Sequence record: MN850579.1
Source: Escherichia phage mogra
Length of the DNA stretch: 64,000 nt
Strand: one strand, 5' to 3'
In this document: positions 36,371-45,263 of the stretch, in pieces
Numbering within the stretch: position 1 is the stretch's first letter
How the letters are laid out: each line of letters begins with the position of its first letter
The notes under the pieces: model-generated
Told to the model about the DNA's origin: nothing
What the model saw: the letters and a program-made list of their open reading frames with translations, nothing else
The model's database searches: none
Translations under genes and position numbers: made by a program

Positions 36371-36445
36371 GGCCCTGTAGCTCAATGGGAGAGCTGTCAG
36401 CTCATAACTGATAGGTAGCTGGATCGAAACCAGCCAGGGCCACCA
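36371..36445 (+). tRNA. tRNA with CAU anticodon (Ile2 with lysidine, or Met)
   Basis: Hand-folded cloverleaf: acceptor GGCCCTG/CAGGGCC, D arm GCTC-AATGGGA-GAGC, anticodon loop CTCATAA, T arm GCTGG/CCAGC, encoded CCA. Confidence 0.8.
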
Positions 36446-36545: not shown

Positions 36546-36622
<77 letters not shown>

Positions 36623-39643: not shown

Positions 39644-40246
39644 ATGCGAAACCAAAATAATGATATTGACTCAATGTTCGAAGAGTTCCGAGATAAGGTA
39701 AATCCACCTACGTCTTTAGTTGATTCATTACGATATGTTGCAACTGGACGTAAATGGTACTGGTCGTCTTCTTATGAGACCACCGAGAAAACGGCTAGCC
39801 ATAGCAGAAAATCTTTATTAGCCCCAGGTATTATGATTCATGATATCGGAGCTATTGCTAAACTAGTTGCAGACCATGATATTAGATTCACTGATTTCGT
39901 TGCTCCTACGTGGTCTGTTTGTTGTTTAAACACTGAATGGGAATATATCAGCGAACGCTCTGAAGATTATTATGGCTTTAGAGATAAGCTTCTGAGGTCT
40001 AATATGTTTTATATCGATACAGAAGTTCTAGTCGATAATAAAAAATATTACTTTACGTTAATCATCGATTCTGAAACTATGTATGAAGGCAAGCCTTTGC
40101 TTAAGAGAGTTGATGCTTTAAGTGCTATTGATGCGCTTTATGAAACTATGGTTGTTAGTCCTAATTTCACTAATAATTTAATCCTTGAGCAATTTATTAT
40201 GGAATGTAGAGAATATGTCAAAGCCAACCCTATACATGCCAAGTAA
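39644..40246 (+). CDS. Hypothetical protein
   Basis: ATG after AAGGAG SD; about 200 aa; C-terminal ...QFIMECREYV. Confidence 0.65.
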   Translation: MRNQNNDIDSMFEEFRDKVNPPTSLVDSLRYVATGRKWYWSSSYETTEKTASHSRKSLLAPGIMIHDIGAIAKLVADHDIRFTDFVAPTWSVCCLNTEWEYISERSEDYYGFRDKLLRSNMFYIDTEVLVDNKKYYFTLIIDSETMYEGKPLLKRVDALSAIDALYETMVVSPNFTNNLILEQFIMECREYVKANPIHAK

Positions 40247-40610
40247 GCCCTGGGCGTATGAATACAAGCGTAAATTAATCCCAAATGAAGTATTATTTGG
40301 CCCTATTTTAGCTTTAGCATTTTTAATCTTTATGATTATAGGAGCTGTTTTAGATTCTAGTGAAGTTATATCGTCTGATGCAGCATTTTCATTAATGTTC
40401 GTCGCACCACTTATTGTACCGTTTTTATTAATGCCTATTAATTGGGTAGGATATTGGCACCAAGGCCGTCATCACAGAGCCCGATTAAGAGAATGGAAAG
40501 TTCAGTGCGCAAAAGCCCAAGCTCAGTATGATGAAGCTGTTAAAAAGTATGAATATGAAGAAGCTATGGAATTCGTTAAGGAAATAAGATGCAAAAGCCT
40601 CAACTCTTAA
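40215..40610 (+). CDS. Small membrane protein
   Basis: About 131 aa; two hydrophobic helices; start overlaps upstream gene. Confidence 0.55.
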   Translation: MSKPTLYMPSKPWAYEYKRKLIPNEVLFGPILALAFLIFMIIGAVLDSSEVISSDAAFSLMFVAPLIVPFLLMPINWVGYWHQGRHHRARLREWKVQCAKAQAQYDEAVKKYEYEEAMEFVKEIRCKSLNS

Positions 40611-40948
40611 CCGTATGGCCTTCTCTTGGTGAGAACATTCTAATTTTTATTATGAGTATTGGCATGGGATTTGCCTTTGGATTAGTTGGATTTCTTATTG
40701 ACGGCGTTGTGTTAGGATTTATAGGGAACACTGGTGGATTCACAGACCAATGGCAGGACTTACGGTATACCCAAGCCTTTGCATCCATCGCATCATTTTG
40801 TACTGTAGTCTATTTTTACTACGATTTTATAAACCATAACAAGAAAAATAAAAAGATTTACGCTTCTCAAATGATTAGTTATAATGAACTTCTAGCTAAA
40901 CGTGAAAATGAAACAATCGAAAACTTTATTAAGGAATGTAGAAAATGA
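40589..40948 (+). CDS. Small membrane protein, C-terminal NFIKECRK
   Basis: 119 aa; TM helices; C-terminal FIKECR motif shared with 43098 and 44091 genes. Confidence 0.65.
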   Translation: MQKPQLLTVWPSLGENILIFIMSIGMGFAFGLVGFLIDGVVLGFIGNTGGFTDQWQDLRYTQAFASIASFCTVVYFYYDFINHNKKNKKIYASQMISYNELLAKRENETIENFIKECRK

Positions 40949-41250
40949 GTAAGATTATTGAAATTAAAGTACCAGAGTTTAATGATGCCAAATCCGCTTC
41001 AGATGCAATTTATAAACTTCTGAATCAAGCTGAACGTATCGAAGAAGAAGCAACAAAGATCGCAGACCAATATGCCGTGTCATTTTCTGTAGGTGATTAT
41101 GGTAGCGGTCGTACTTATTATCCTAAGGGTGAAATCGTATCCCAGTGGATGAAAGATGAAATTGAAAATAATGGTGGCGATGTTAAGCGTGAAGGTAATG
41201 GTTACGTTATTACTGAAGGTGCTTGGGTTTCGTCTTCTGCGTTGTGCTAA
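40945..41250 (+). CDS. Small protein, paralog family member 1 (C-terminal GAWVSSSALC)
   Basis: 101 aa; ATGA overlap with upstream gene. Confidence 0.65.
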   Translation: MSKIIEIKVPEFNDAKSASDAIYKLLNQAERIEEEATKIADQYAVSFSVGDYGSGRTYYPKGEIVSQWMKDEIENNGGDVKREGNGYVITEGAWVSSSALC

Positions 41251-41259
41251 GGAATCATT

Positions 41260-41532
41260 ATGTCTAAAGAACAAACCGAACTGGCTGAAGCTGTAGCAAA
41301 AATCTATGCAGCTATTGAGGCTGCCAAAGAAATTGCTGATAAACAAAACACAACATTCAACTTGTACCCAGCTTATGGTATGGGTGGAACCTATCATTCA
41401 CCCAGACATCTTAAAGCCGATCTTGAACGTTGTACAAAAAACGGCTATGCTGAATGGGCTGACGTTTACCAATACGACTACAACCTGAGCCTCGAAACCG
41501 GTGGTTGGGTTGCATCTTCTCACACTTGCTAA
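41260..41532 (+). CDS. Small protein, paralog family member 2 (C-terminal GGWVASSHTC)
   Basis: 90 aa; SD TAAGGAA. Confidence 0.65.
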   Translation: MSKEQTELAEAVAKIYAAIEAAKEIADKQNTTFNLYPAYGMGGTYHSPRHLKADLERCTKNGYAEWADVYQYDYNLSLETGGWVASSHTC

Positions 41533-41541
41533 GGAAACAAT

Positions 41542-41739
41542 ATGTCTCGTGAATTAGATTGTGCTGTACGTACGGCAGTAGCTGCTCTGGAAAACCTGTT
41601 CCAAATTGCAACAGAAGAACGCGAAGAAGTTACATTATGGATTGAAGATAACGCAGGTCTGAATCTCCAGGACGCGATCTCATTATCCCACAATAGTATC
41701 ACTGTTCAAGGCTGGGTATCATCTAGTTATTCTTGCTAA
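41542..41739 (+). CDS. Small protein, paralog family member 3 (C-terminal QGWVSSSYSC)
   Basis: 65 aa; SD TAAGGAAA. Confidence 0.6.
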   Translation: MSRELDCAVRTAVAALENLFQIATEEREEVTLWIEDNAGLNLQDAISLSHNSITVQGWVSSSYSC

Positions 41740-41744
41740 AACAG

Positions 41745-41802
41745 TTTACAACAAGATAGGGCTATGTTATAGTAGTCCTATCAAAAACAAATGGAGTCCA
41801 CA
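41745..41802 (+). promoter_or_regulatory. Early promoter cassette (PeSL)
   Basis: TTTACA -35, TATAGT -10 in TAGGGCTA/TAGTCCTA hairpin, leader AAATGGAG. Confidence 0.7.
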
Positions 41803-42042
41803 ATGATTTATTACGAAAGTATCGGAACCAAAGTGGTTGGTAAAACCATTACTCGTGAAAAGTTTGCAAAGATATTCGATATGCGTTATAAAAAATCTGA
41901 ACACAAAGGCATCCGATTCGAAGATGCGCACTGTACAATTTGCCCTTATAATGAAGACATAAACGGTACAATCGTTCCATTGGTAGAGGCTTCACACGAT
42001 GACCTCTGGGACGAATATAATATCGCATGTCGTGAAATTTAA
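41803..42042 (+). CDS. Hypothetical protein
   Basis: 79 aa from second ATG (GGAG SD). Confidence 0.55.
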   Translation: MIYYESIGTKVVGKTITREKFAKIFDMRYKKSEHKGIRFEDAHCTICPYNEDINGTIVPLVEASHDDLWDEYNIACREI

Positions 42043-42070
42043 GTTAATGAATTAATCCGAGGAAAATATT

Positions 42071-43027
42071 ATGATGTTAGTTATTGGTTCTCGTGCACTT
42101 CACTATCACGGTCTTATTGATTCTAGCGCTATCAAAAATAGCGATTGGGACTTTATTGCGGACCAAGGTTCTTGGAATGCATTCAAAAATCAAATGATGG
42201 GTGTATATGTTCACCAAGATAACCCTGATGTCCAAGTTTTCAAATGCTTCCATAATGGACGCGAAACTCATTTTGAAGCATATATTGTTCCGGCAATCAC
42301 TAATGTCCGTGAATTAGTCGGTGAACTCACTCCTGAAGATTTCACGTCTTCTTATGACCTTTTAAAATACGCCAAGAAAAATTTGACTAAAGACCGTTTG
42401 AACGGGTTTTACTGGGCAACTCCTGAGATATGTCTTGCAATTAAGATGTCTCATCGTTTCAAGAAAAATAATCCATTCTTTTTAAAGACTATGAACCATA
42501 TTCAGTATCTTCGTGGTAAAGGTGTTACACTGAACGATGAACTTACTGAAATTATGCTGAAACGCCAGAAAGAAACCTTGAACTATGCTCACCCGGTTCT
42601 TGACACTTCTAAAAGTGCGTTCTTTAAAGATGACATCTATACATATGACCATGATACTATTCATGAAGCCATTGCACTAACAGACCGTCCGGCTTATACA
42701 TTTTATATGAAAGACGGTTCTGAAGTCATGACCTCACGCGAGAAGTTCGAATCGTTACCAGAAATGGTCAAATTGGCCGGTGTATATGAAGAATCATGTG
42801 TACTAGCATTAGAACGTTCTCAGATTCCTAATGACTTTAAAATTAACCCTGAAGCCAGTTTCATGATGGCATTAGAAAAAGTCTGCACAAGCATCACCTC
42901 CGGTTGGTTCCGTGAATACGCCTGGGAAAACTACAGCAAAGTAGTAAGTATGTACCAAAGCTTAGGACATAACGATTACGTCAAACGTTTCAAACAAAAT
43001 TTCCATATGGTAAAACCTTTCAAATAA
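42071..43027 (+). CDS. Nucleotidyltransferase-fold protein (pol-beta superfamily, AbiEii/DUF1814-like motif)
   Basis: 318 aa; N-terminal VIGSRALHYHGL...SDWDF fits hG[GS]...[DE]h[DE] NTase motif. Confidence 0.5.
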   Translation: MMLVIGSRALHYHGLIDSSAIKNSDWDFIADQGSWNAFKNQMMGVYVHQDNPDVQVFKCFHNGRETHFEAYIVPAITNVRELVGELTPEDFTSSYDLLKYAKKNLTKDRLNGFYWATPEICLAIKMSHRFKKNNPFFLKTMNHIQYLRGKGVTLNDELTEIMLKRQKETLNYAHPVLDTSKSAFFKDDIYTYDHDTIHEAIALTDRPAYTFYMKDGSEVMTSREKFESLPEMVKLAGVYEESCVLALERSQIPNDFKINPEASFMMALEKVCTSITSGWFREYAWENYSKVVSMYQSLGHNDYVKRFKQNFHMVKPFK

Positions 43028-43040
43028 TTTCGCAAAACTG

Positions 43041-43097
43041 TTTACACAATTATAGGACTATGTTATAGTAGTCCTACCAAAACATGAGGAGAATATT
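43041..43097 (+). promoter_or_regulatory. Early promoter cassette (PeSL)
   Basis: TTTACA -35, TATAGT -10 in TAGGACTA/TAGTCCTA hairpin. Confidence 0.7.
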
Positions 43098-43403
43098 ATG
43101 AAATTAGGCGAAACCAACCGAATTGGTCTTTTAACAATATTTGCATCACTTTTTTACGCAACTCTTTCTGTTGCAGTATTACAAAAGGCTTACAGTATGG
43201 ATGGTGTGCCTGGTTGTATATTCTTATCACCGTTTTTATTATTCGTCGGAGCTTTGTTATTATATGCCACGACTAGTTTCGACCATAATGTCTGGGTCAA
43301 TTATAAACGTAAATTGACCGAAGAAGAACACGCAGAAGCTCGTAAAAAAGCTATTGAATCTACCAATCTAGAAAATTTCATTAAAGAATGTCGAGGAAAA
43401 TAA
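43098..43403 (+). CDS. Small membrane protein, C-terminal NFIKECRGK
   Basis: 101 aa; two TM helices; FIKECR C-terminal motif. Confidence 0.65.
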   Translation: MKLGETNRIGLLTIFASLFYATLSVAVLQKAYSMDGVPGCIFLSPFLLFVGALLLYATTSFDHNVWVNYKRKLTEEEHAEARKKAIESTNLENFIKECRGK

Positions 43404-43404
43404 T

Positions 43405-44091
43405 ATGAATAGTTCTAAAGTGTTTAATAGTCAAGCTCGTGCAATAGGTGGTTTTGCTCATGCGATTAAAAACGACCAGATTAAAAACGAGCCTATGTTC
43501 TTTAACTGCGATTTGAATTTTGCTTTTGATAATGGCGGCCCAATTACTCGTAGCTTTATCCAAAATCTCCCTGACGATTGGAAAGACTCGGATGTAGTAT
43601 TTGATTCACGAGTCCACATGCTGATGCCTGGTTGGTACCCTGCTATTCCTGGATATCACCATGACGATGTTCCACGCCCTGATATTCCAGTTGGTCAACA
43701 TTTTATTACTGCAGGACAACCTGATTATGACAATCCTCGCTATTTGTCTGAACATATTCTTGGTCTTGTTAACGCTGATGTGTGTCCTACTCATTTTGCA
43801 ACAGGAACTGCAGAGTTCAGTCAGATTCCTGATGGCGAACTTATCTATCGCCAGTGGCACAAAGAAGTCCTCGAAAAAATCGAAAAAGGCGAACTAGAGA
43901 AATGGGAAGCTCCAGACCGTACTCTTCTTCAGTTTGATTGGCAAACATGGCACACTGGTTCTCGTGCAATTAGTAATGGATGGCGTTGGTTCGGACGTGT
44001 ATCTCGTAATACAGACCGAGTTAAAAAGATTACCAATGAAATTCGTGTCAATGCCCAAGTTTATCTGGAATTCCCTATGGAAGGTTGGTAA
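43405..44091 (+). CDS. Hypothetical protein (contains PGYHHDD motif)
   Basis: 228 aa ORF, translationally coupled. Confidence 0.65.
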   Translation: MNSSKVFNSQARAIGGFAHAIKNDQIKNEPMFFNCDLNFAFDNGGPITRSFIQNLPDDWKDSDVVFDSRVHMLMPGWYPAIPGYHHDDVPRPDIPVGQHFITAGQPDYDNPRYLSEHILGLVNADVCPTHFATGTAEFSQIPDGELIYRQWHKEVLEKIEKGELEKWEAPDRTLLQFDWQTWHTGSRAISNGWRWFGRVSRNTDRVKKITNEIRVNAQVYLEFPMEGW

Positions 44092-44582
44092 TGATTAACA
44101 AAACATATTGGTCTAATATAGACGATGGCAACGAAGGTATTTCGTATTATTCGGTAGATTGGACAGGATGTCCATCCTACTTAGTGAAACATATTTGCCA
44201 AGAATTTAAAATCTACCAGCCAGCAGGTATTATTGTGAACAGATACATTAATGGATATCAACCTATCGATGAAGTAATACGAACAACTCAAGCTGAGCTT
44301 GAAAAGTTTTTCAATAAGTGCCAATGGATAACAGGATGGATTATATTTGTACCGTCTATATGGTTTTTTAGTACTAAAGTAAGTGCCTTTGCTGTACTAG
44401 ATATTATCGCTATCTTATTAGCATCTACTATCGTAAGTATTATTGGTGGTATTATTGGTGGAGGTATTGTAGGCATCATTATTAATCTTATTAAAAGTAG
44501 TTTACAAGAACATAAAGACAAGATAAAAGCCAAGAATAATGAAGTTGAACGTTTTATTACCGAATGCAGGAATTTGAGATGA
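44091..44582 (+). CDS. Membrane protein with Gly-rich TM segment, C-terminal RFITECRNLR
   Basis: 163 aa; TAATG overlap with upstream stop; IIGGIIGGGIVGIII hydrophobic segment. Confidence 0.65.
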   Translation: MINKTYWSNIDDGNEGISYYSVDWTGCPSYLVKHICQEFKIYQPAGIIVNRYINGYQPIDEVIRTTQAELEKFFNKCQWITGWIIFVPSIWFFSTKVSAFAVLDIIAILLASTIVSIIGGIIGGGIVGIIINLIKSSLQEHKDKIKAKNNEVERFITECRNLR

Positions 44583-44815
44583 GTATAGCAATTTACATTA
44601 AATCAGAATCATGTGATAGTTATCTGTACACATACGATAAAGATGTGTCAGAAGAAAAAATCAAAGACGATCTTAATATGGACCTTGATATGTTCTGTCC
44701 TATTGCAGATTACAAACTTGCGGTCTCTAATAGTGAAAGTCCATCTAAAGAAACGCGCATCGAAGAATTTATGTCCGAATTAATGGCCAAATCATGGGAC
44801 CGAGATGATGAGTAA
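44579..44815 (+). CDS. Hypothetical acidic protein
   Basis: 78 aa; ATGA overlap with upstream gene. Confidence 0.55.
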   Translation: MSIAIYIKSESCDSYLYTYDKDVSEEKIKDDLNMDLDMFCPIADYKLAVSNSESPSKETRIEEFMSELMAKSWDRDDE

Positions 44816-45263
44816 GAAAAATAAAGTGAAAGAACTATCAGCCGGTATTATTTTCCTTACCGAAGATAAAGAATTATTCATGGGGCGTGTAACTGGTTCT
44901 TGTCCTAAAGGTTCTTTAGCTCATAGGTGGGATATTCCTAAAGGCCGTGTCGAACCTGGCGAATCTTCTATTGAAGCCGCTATTCGTGAATGCGAAGAAG
45001 AAACTGGGTTTACACAATATGACCCTGCCTTCCTGAAAGACCTAGGTGAACATCGTTACTCAGACAATAAGAATATTCATCTGTTCCTATATGCCATCCC
45101 TGTAGAGCACGAGCAATTCAGAAACAGTGTTTGTAATTCCTATCATACATTCCCAGACGGACGACAGATTCCTGAATTTGATGCATTCGCTTTAATTAAA
45201 CCTTCTCAATGGGAATATGTGATGGGCAAATCATTATATAAGGTGCTCACTACCCTCCTATAA
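44805..45263 (+). CDS. nudE: Nudix hydrolase (NudE / e.1-like)
   Basis: 152 aa; Nudix box GRVEPGESSIEAAIRECEEETG; immediately upstream of endolysin as in T4. Confidence 0.88.
   Translation: MMSKKNKVKELSAGIIFLTEDKELFMGRVTGSCPKGSLAHRWDIPKGRVEPGESSIEAAIRECEEETGFTQYDPAFLKDLGEHRYSDNKNIHLFLYAIPVEHEQFRNSVCNSYHTFPDGRQIPEFDAFALIKPSQWEYVMGKSLYKVLTTLL

Follow-up and report, generated by a model that had tools for sequence, protein, structure and literature searches.

We report that the gene at positions 42071-43027 of a 64,000-nucleotide stretch of DNA from Escherichia phage mogra (sequence record MN850579.1; the whole stretch is referred to as ‘the window’) encodes a member of an uncharacterised, phage-specific nucleotidyltransferase (NTase) family, which possesses a novel C-terminal module and is accompanied by a novel type of small, tail-tagged partner protein. 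The gene product apparently is a minimal pol-beta NTase with an intact and strongly conserved catalytic triad, and is predicted to be active because its catalytic residues hardly vary among 265 relatives, in contrast to the divergent N-terminal domain around them. Together with one to four tandemly encoded tail proteins, the enzyme constitutes a two-component module that is conserved and restricted to phages. Among the activities considered below, the one that we tentatively favour is transfer of a nucleoside monophosphate (NMP) onto a serine in the tail of these small proteins.

The nucleotidyltransferase core and its helical extension

The N-terminus of the protein, IGSRALHYHGLIDSSAIKNSDWDF, matches the pattern hG[GS]x(n)[DE]h[DE] of the pol-beta superfamily, as had been stated in an earlier reading of the same DNA made without database searches (in the following, the original prediction), and the 318-residue open reading frame (ORF) on which that reading was based is confirmed; it starts with ATG and is preceded by a GAGGA ribosome-binding site. 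When taken alone, the bare pattern is only moderately informative: it occurs in 4 of the 107 window ORFs of at least 100 residues and in 1.4% of shuffled versions of the NTase protein, or in 0.04% if the N-terminal position is required. Conservation provides the real support. G6, S7, D25 and D27 are near-invariant in the 265 relatives, and to these we add a third carboxylate, E69, which was absent from the motif list of the original prediction. Residue counts for this core (Table 1) refer to the non-gap positions of the 265 relatives plus the query and include representatives at 37-52% identity; D25, D27 and E69 are each acidic in at least 98% of the relatives, and the N-terminal domain outside the catalytic residues diverges freely.

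The AlphaFold2 model (48-sequence alignment; predicted local distance difference test, pLDDT, 91.3; predicted template modelling score, pTM, 0.86) comprises a five-stranded α/β core (residues 2-73) and an all-helical region (residues 77-309). I5-G6-S7 is located between strand 2-5 and helix 7-12 of the model, D25-W-D27 lies on strand 26-31, and E69 is found in the middle of strand 64-73. Hence, the sequence and fold hallmarks of the pol-beta NTase superfamily are all present, that is, (i) hG[GS] at a strand-to-helix turn, (ii) [DE]h[DE] along with a third carboxylate, and (iii) the minimal α/β fold. Structure prediction and structural searches thus place the protein in the pol-beta fold, as had been anticipated: the structural neighbours of the model are MenT1 (score 9.9), ANT(2'') (8.5), MenT3/TglT (8.4), 5uvd (7.7), TM1012 (7.6), MenT4 (7.5), 4ok0 from H. 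pylori (7.4) and LnuA (7.1), and Foldseek agrees by listing 5uvd and MenT1 first, terminal uridylyltransferases and CCA-adding enzymes following as weak matches. The match to antibiotic transferases is about as good as that to tRNA toxins, and the fold therefore does not identify the substrate.

The original prediction had gone further and assigned the protein to the DUF1814/AbiEii family, and this assignment did not withstand comparison with profiles. PF08843 is unmatched at E up to 10 with both the whole protein and its N-terminal half, and an AbiEii match was obtained for just 1 of 142 divergent relatives (E 0.021). The AbiEii-like details of the motif likewise found no confirmation: S24 of S-D-W-D-F varies across the family, and 17 residues separate GS from DxD, in a segment with insertions and deletions, compared with a spacing of 9-13 residues in motif I of AbiEii proteins. 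The resemblance to MenT toxins consequently holds at the superfamily level, that is, for the fold, but not for membership in DUF1814. Pfam instead recognizes DUF7277 (E 9.5e-28, 97.2 bits) and DUF7275 (E 2.9e-79, 265.8 bits) in the protein, both relative to a gathering cutoff of 27, and PHROGs assigns it to phrog_2141 (E 1.7e-150; function unassigned). DUF7275 is found in 142 of 142 divergent relatives and DUF7277 in 135, with weak recurrent matches to DUF4269 and to DUF6036, which carries the Pfam label nucleotidyltransferase. A PADLOC search with the NTase protein yielded no match, NCBIfam gave nothing above its curated threshold, and a PDB sequence search with the single sequence and two profiles revealed no significant relative. 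Nothing relevant was found in the literature on DUF7275, DUF7277, RB69ORF134c, PF23940 or phrog_2141.

The C-terminal domain is conserved even more strongly than the catalytic core. Across an alignment of 142 members (at most about 50% mutual identity), K125, H128, F137, K139, L177, F184, H194, D195, H198, P207, E240, E241, L245, E248, R249, G278 and R281 are invariant; the stretches K125-x-x-H128-R129 and D193-H194-D195 are candidate counterparts of the Lys-containing helix (motif III) and the Asp motif (motif IV) by which the active site of MenT toxins is completed, with K137 and D152 in MenT1. The first helices of the DUF7275 domain are the counterpart of the C-lobe of MenT and 5uvd, and the distal ~150 residues have no solved structural relative. 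The H...HDxxH...E arrangement brought to mind an HD or class I phosphodiesterase phosphohydrolase; this identity was rejected, given that the domain does not adopt the HD-domain helical fold.

Homologs of the enzyme were found in 733 phage records, with hosts including Escherichia, Acinetobacter, Aeromonas, Pseudomonas, Vibrio, Klebsiella, Gordonia and Streptomyces, and the family forms 2,211 clusters at 90% and 1,240 clusters at 50% identity. A scan of cellular genomes (185,579 bacterial and archaeal species, one genome each), which was seeded by two peptide patterns and is thus of limited sensitivity, returned six loci, all on contigs of metagenome-assembled genomes; the ORF map of one such contig that was examined shows many small ORFs. 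Hence, the NTase family appears to be essentially phage-restricted, unlike the MenT/AbiEii toxins. Its members are mostly acidic (median isoelectric point, pI, 6.2; 77% below 7), which is a weak indicator as far as RNA binding is concerned. In P0053, a metagenomic relative on a 3-kb contig, DUF7275 is preceded by DUF1190 instead of DUF7277, which is possibly a domain swap or an assembly chimera.

Shorter enzymes of 251-266 residues occur in Mycobacterium, Gordonia and Streptomyces phages and in Vibrio phage K412. Three such ‘short-type’ enzymes from actinophages keep GS, DxD, K125, H128, K139, HDxxH, EE and ER; their sheet is reduced, and R165, H174, C272, W279, F280 and R281 are missing. The 261-residue protein of K412 has the same hallmark motifs, as judged by eye.

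Small tail-tagged proteins encoded beside the enzyme

All-against-all comparison of small ORFs flanking the NTase genes revealed that the tandem ORFs of the window (Table 1) are homologous to ORFs located 5' of the NTase gene in unrelated phages. The proteins comprise 60-120 residues. A helix at the N-terminus is in most cases followed by a Y-G-M-G-G-x-Y loop, and a spacer that varies in length leads to the extreme C-terminus, W-x-x-S-S-x-x-C-stop; invariance or near-invariance is limited to W(-7), S(-4), S(-3) and the terminal Cys, C(0). All 19 matches (E <=1e-3) of a hidden Markov model (HMM) of these small proteins lie upstream of an NTase gene on the same strand, with no match elsewhere in the 64-kb window nor in T4 1-75,000. 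The regular expression W..S[ST]..C$, when applied to ORF ends, yields one to four hits per locus in 15 NTase loci carrying the tail, which are of the long type and come from Mosigvirus, Phapecoctavirus, Otagovirus, Lazarusvirus, Ceceduovirus, Menderavirus and several metagenomic contigs; it yields none among the 964 other ORFs of the window, in 77 kb of T4, in 40 shuffled windows, and in the short-type (actinophage and K412) loci. A tblastn search with the second partner copy of the window retrieved 280 phage records from enterobacterial T4-like lineages in which the NTase is present as well. No significant Pfam match to the partner family was obtained, and none of the sources consulted provides an informative name.

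Partner and NTase genes overlap or adjoin in some loci and lie as much as about 3 kb apart in others. The order is inverted in Stenotrophomonas phage Moby, where the tail genes are located downstream of the NTase gene, still adjacent to it. A reverse search with three small proteins, encoded on unrelated contigs from metagenomes, recovered a DUF7275 gene located 87 nt, 107 nt and about 1 kb downstream, respectively. We consider the predicted module of NTase and tail proteins genuine because (i) the partner matches are confined to NTase loci, (ii) adjacency survives the inversion, and (iii) the reverse search leads back to DUF7275. The conserved small-protein partner, and with it the decisive context, lies just outside the coordinates covered by the original prediction.

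Two further observations concern the partners. In RB69 (AY303349, locus L001 2946-3252) a 1-nt insertion splits the first tail gene into RB69ORF139c and ORF138c, with the tail reading WVSSPALC, and the counterpart in the window (40945-41250) is intact with the tail WVSSSALC; the split stems either from a sequencing error or from decay of the RB69 copy to a pseudogene. The short-type enzymes have a partner of their own, namely one to three mostly tandem proteins of 100-160 residues (...GGEGxGDxW...FRRxGxYxS...YDGP...) encoded within two genes downstream (L011 4534-5704, L012 4258-5800, L013 4627-5322 and L028 4479-4856), and this GGEGxGDxW family was found in no long-type locus examined.

Table 1. 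Positions of the NTase gene, its functional elements and associated features in the window.
Feature	Position	Strand	Remarks
Sigma-70-like promoter match of early type, TTTACA-17-TATAGT, extended -10 TG	41745..41773	+	10/12 consensus matches
Partner copy 1, 101 aa, ...GAWVSSSALC-stop	40945..41250	+	HMM E 2.4e-23; tail regular expression; C-terminal part of phrog_899
Partner copy 2, 90 aa, YGMGGTY loop, ...GGWVASSHTC-stop	41260..41532	+	HMM E 1.9e-22; tail regular expression
Partner copy 3, 65 aa, ...QGWVSSSYSC-stop	41542..41739	+	HMM E 5.9e-13; tail regular expression; phrog_4882
Intervening 83-aa ORF, phrog_3723, function unassigned	41791..42042	+	no homolog beside the NTase gene in the other lineages sampled
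Ribosome-binding site GAGGA	42059..42063	+	7 nt 5' of the NTase ATG; read from sequence
NTase gene, 318-aa two-domain nucleotidyltransferase	42071..43027	+	ATG-start ORF; RB69ORF134c homolog; PHROG 2141
Minimal pol-beta NTase core, Pfam DUF7277, aa 2-101	42074..42373	+	strands 2-5, 26-31, 45-47, 54-61, 64-73
G6-S7 codons (hG[GS] motif)	42086..42091	+	G 256/257, S 254/258 non-gap
D25-W26-D27 codons, metal-binding DxD	42143..42151	+	D25 257/259, D27 259/260 non-gap
E69 codon, predicted third catalytic carboxylate	42275..42277	+	E or D 256/260 non-gap; strand 64-73
All-alpha C-terminal domain, Pfam DUF7275, aa 120-305	42428..42985	+	
H194-D195-T-I-H198 codons, HDxxH at helix start	42650..42664	+	invariant in 142 members; kept in short-type
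E240-E241...E248-R249 codons, acidic/basic helix face	42788..42817	+	invariant in 142 members; kept in short-type

What the enzyme may modify

It is tempting to speculate that the enzyme transfers NMP onto the tail serine of the small proteins, and this is the reading to which we lean, if with considerable reserve. The small proteins would then be the acceptor substrates of the NTase, and the distal extension would dock their tail: the terminal carboxylate may be bound by basic residues (R249, K270 and R281, for example) and the terminal Cys by the His/Asp/Glu cluster, possibly via a metal. The hydroxyl of the tail serine would thus be brought to the two-metal NTase centre, where NMP would be moved from a nucleoside triphosphate (O-nucleotidylylation). 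R165, H174, C272, W279, F280 and R281, which are absent from the short-type enzymes, are candidates for tail-binding residues. A role as substrate rather than inhibitor is suggested by the pattern of conservation in the partners, which is limited to hydroxyl- and thiol-bearing residues placed at a constant distance from the C-terminal end; moreover, a copy number of one to four and the dispensability of strict adjacency make the partner unlike an antitoxin, and the covariation of enzyme subtype with partner type likewise argues for the tail as substrate. Host takeover or counter-defence would be the likeliest setting for the modified protein because the partner would be made early in infection, an early position that is suggested only by the promoter-like site.

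Precedents for such chemistry exist. In HepT-MntA (HEPN-MNT) toxin-antitoxin systems of type VII a minimal NTase AMPylates the protein encoded next to it, which is akin to the logic proposed here, and the nucleotide-derived group that is transferred by the holo-ACP synthases CitX and MdcG (EC 2.7.7.61 and 2.7.7.66) ends up on a serine of a small, ~100-residue carrier protein from the same operon. The present partner is, however, no HEPN RNase (it matches no Pfam family), and the proposed site is a tail Ser rather than a Tyr; MntA gave no sequence match and is not among the top-ranking structural matches. CitX and MdcG, in turn, belong to bacterial metabolic operons, their acceptor serine is not located in a C-terminal tail, and their profiles did not match at E up to 10.

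Tail nucleotidylylation might also be part of a phage-only protein-tagging or peptide-maturation system, in which the NMP-serine of the W-x-x-S-S-x-x-C tail is either the end product or a leaving group; we regard this proposal as possible yet doubtful. For the leaving-group variant, elimination would yield dehydroalanine, and its capture by the terminal Cys would create a lanthionine-like ring, with Ser and Cys spaced i+3 or i+4. Peptide maturation is suggested because the leader-like helix, the G-G-containing loop seen in many of the small proteins, the short C-terminal core and the tandem precursor genes resemble a gene cluster for ribosomally synthesized and post-translationally modified peptides (RiPPs). 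No match to the NTase family was found in the literature on phage NTases and on RiPPs and AMPylation.

Several points weigh against a tail-modifying enzyme. Both the contact between enzyme and partner and the modification of the tail are putative features that we infer from the sequences; two long-type loci, L006 and L015, carry degenerate tails only; and the short-type enzymes keep K125, H128, K139, HDxxH, EE and ER without having a tail protein, so that these residues cannot be purely tail-binding. In the window the promoter-like site and the unrelated 83-residue ORF split the partner genes from the NTase gene, and the gap reaches about 3 kb in one lineage. Furthermore, among the closest structural neighbours, those whose substrates are known act on tRNA (MenT) or antibiotics (ANT(2''), LnuA) and not on proteins, and the small protein encoded upstream of MenT1 is an inhibitor (PMC10435456).

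A rival view is that the enzyme is a MenT-like RNA 3'-end transferase, which would extend tRNAs or other RNAs by nucleotides and thereby shut off host translation or else repair or cap damaged ends, with the small proteins serving as antitoxin-like inhibitors or regulators. MenT1 is indeed the top structural match, Foldseek weakly lists terminal uridylyltransferases and CCA-adding enzymes, and the 68-residue MenA1 is encoded directly upstream of MenT1 in the gene arrangement seen here (PMC10435456). In addition, the invariant K125 is located ~100 residues past DxD, a spacing similar to that from D41 to K137 in MenT1, and Rnl1, Pnkp and RNA ligase genes are found 1-5 kb away in three lineages. 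We nevertheless consider this view rather unlikely. MenT1/MenA1 (Rv0078A/Rv0078B), MenT3 and MenT4 of M. tuberculosis fall under the DUF1814 profile, unlike the phage NTase, for which the AbiEii/DUF1814, RlaP and CCA-enzyme profiles are unmatched and which has ~150 extra conserved residues, is mostly acidic and resides in phage loci rather than bacterial toxin-antitoxin loci. The partners, with their one to four copies, optional adjacency and W..SS..C tail, differ from MenA1, which makes contact through a hydrophobic helix; the structural match to ANT(2'') and LnuA is almost as good as that to the MenT toxins; both tRNA genes of the window already encode CCA; and a general tRNA poison would hurt phage translation too. 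No annotated AbiEi-like antitoxin is present in the phage and metagenomic loci sampled, where the different small partner is found instead. Acidity, phage restriction, the lack of an AbiEi/MenA-type neighbour and the extra residues also weigh against a simple domesticated tRNA toxin (a domesticated toxin was among the options of the original prediction). Unlikely, too, is that the enzyme acts as an ANT(2'')/LnuA-type transferase on a metabolite, a second messenger or an antibiotic-like anti-phage compound, with the small proteins being accessory or co-inherited. Such a function would agree with the structural matches to ANT(2'') and LnuA, with the acidic pI and the dense, invariant cluster of acidic and His residues on the acceptor side, which is typical for cationic or metal-bound small ligands, and with the extreme conservation of the C-terminal domain across unrelated hosts, which suggests a universal, non-evolving ligand; NAD-related genes are also located nearby (the Adps-phosphatase-Namat-like cluster of K412, Nampt of Moby, SIR2, and NudE in the window). 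It leaves unexplained, however, both the tight, order-independent linkage to the tail proteins and the different tandem partner of the short-type enzymes, and NAD genes are close in a few lineages only. Moreover, ANT(2'')-Ia (4xje) and LnuA (4wh5) show no sequence relationship to the NTase, which is larger, has a different C-terminal elaboration, and stands in a phage context with a protein partner; and the sugar-activating transferase for arabinosyl-hydroxymethylcytosine (arabinosyl-hmC) in RB69 is another gene product, gp52:53 (PMC13326640, PMC12838424). Finally, some NTase-fold proteins are pseudoenzymes, and the phage protein might be catalytically dead, keeping an NTase-like fold for structural or regulatory purposes; we deem this highly improbable, as conservation of GS and the three carboxylates is near-absolute over the family (about 1,240 clusters at 50% identity) and the residues next to them drift.

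Three more specific identities were rejected. The literature assigns sugar activation for the arabinosyl-hmC DNA of RB69 to gp52:53 and does not mention the NTase gene (PMC13326640, PMC12838424). Addition of CCA to phage tRNAs is disfavoured by the gene-encoded CCA, the lack of a match to PF01743, the profile of class II CCA-adding enzymes and poly(A) polymerases, and Foldseek TM-scores of only 0.14-0.20. RlaP proteins such as T4 NrdC.11 and phage CCA-adding enzymes are pol-beta NTases of phages that have been proposed to restore RNA ends in the course of RNA repair (PMC7824862); a kinship with RlaP (PF10127) or NrdC.11 was dismissed since PF10127 is unmatched, hhalign against T4 NrdC.11 gives a probability of 0.04, and ligases are near in few lineages, the NTase family not being consistently located beside RNA ligases. 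T4 NrdC.11 itself (L018 436-1446) is a member of RlaP (PF10127, E 4.6e-12). The two tRNA genes of the window (36371-36445 and 36546-36622) encode a tRNA-Met-like (CAT) and a tRNA-Arg (TCT) species, each with its 3'-CCA.

Genomic surroundings and implications

The window is from an RB69-like Mosigvirus: the 5 kb around the NTase gene exhibit 98.5% identity to vB_Eco_F27 and 97.0% to RB69, and 315 of the 318 residues match RB69ORF134c, a protein that carries the annotation ‘hypothetical’ throughout. T4 has no gene at the syntenic position: e.2 and e.3 are direct neighbours there, and the block RB69ORF132c-139c accordingly represents an insertion relative to T4; in the window (40945-44091) this block, which is not in T4, comprises the tail proteins, the 83-residue ORF, the NTase, a membrane protein and a 228-residue protein. 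The statement of the original prediction that T4 has no counterpart holds for the syntenic slot and, beyond it, for T4 1-75,000 as searched by tblastn (75,001-168,903 being unscanned) and for 1-56,000 as searched with a profile HMM.

An early-gene position of the NTase gene is suggested by the promoter-like site, a consensus match only, which is placed between the partner genes and the NTase gene. The 83-residue ORF that follows it is probably not part of the NTase/partner module, as BLAST comparison of neighbours gave no cross-locus homolog in the other lineages sampled. The 228-residue protein (43405-44091), a homolog of RB69ORF132c, belongs to phrog_1843 and features an H-H-D-D stretch without any Pfam match. 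A C-terminal tail of another kind, F-[IV]-[KT]-E-[CI]-R, is common to e.4 (40185-40610; ...EFVKEIRCK), e.3 (40589-40948; ...NFIKECRK), RB69ORF133c (43098-43403; ...NFIKECRGK) and e.2 (44085-44582; ...RFITECRNLR). These four form a paralogous family that flanks and interrupts the inserted block; e.4, e.3 and e.2 are predicted membrane proteins in the RB69 annotation, and phrog_2203 is matched by both ORF133c and e.2.

In the loci sampled, no conserved annotated gene adjoins the NTase gene. Metallophos (calcineurin-like phosphoesterase) genes are located 0.3-3.4 kb from it in at least two lineages, and Rnl1, Pnkp and DNA-ligase genes are near it in L014 and L020 (positions listed for Metallophos and Rnl1/Pnkp: L014 7266-8027, L020 7647-8426, L022 2182-2919, L024 1341-2078 and L002 1534-2277); in Streptomyces phage Beuffert an RNA ligase is encoded about 1 kb upstream. 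Genes related to NAD or ADP-ribose recur as well: K412 has a cluster for ribose-phosphate pyrophosphokinase, a phosphatase and nicotinamide phosphoribosyltransferase two genes upstream (L028 1-2663), Moby has Nampt about 3.3 kb upstream (L027 1-175), Phapecoctavirus-like phages have SIR2 about 2.3 kb downstream (L002 8203-9003, L022 8806-9606), and the window has NudE about 1.8 kb downstream (44805-45263). This recurrence could be a coincidence of accessory-gene regions.

The NTase family spans T4-like phages, Phapecoctavirus, Otagovirus and Acinetobacter phages, with shorter forms in Vibrio and actinobacterial phages and almost none in cells. For this family, which is without prior study, the catalytic centre, the extension and the Ser-Ser...Cys tail provide a hypothesis that can be tested by co-expression and a search for the nucleotide adduct. 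If the tail turned out to be the substrate, virulent phages would perform a new protein or peptide modification early in infection, and new counter-defence or host-takeover chemistry, as well as a new enzymatic tagging tool, might plausibly be derived from it. If, on the other hand, the enzyme turned out to be a regulated tRNA transferase, phages would carry MenT-like toxin/inhibitor pairs of their own.

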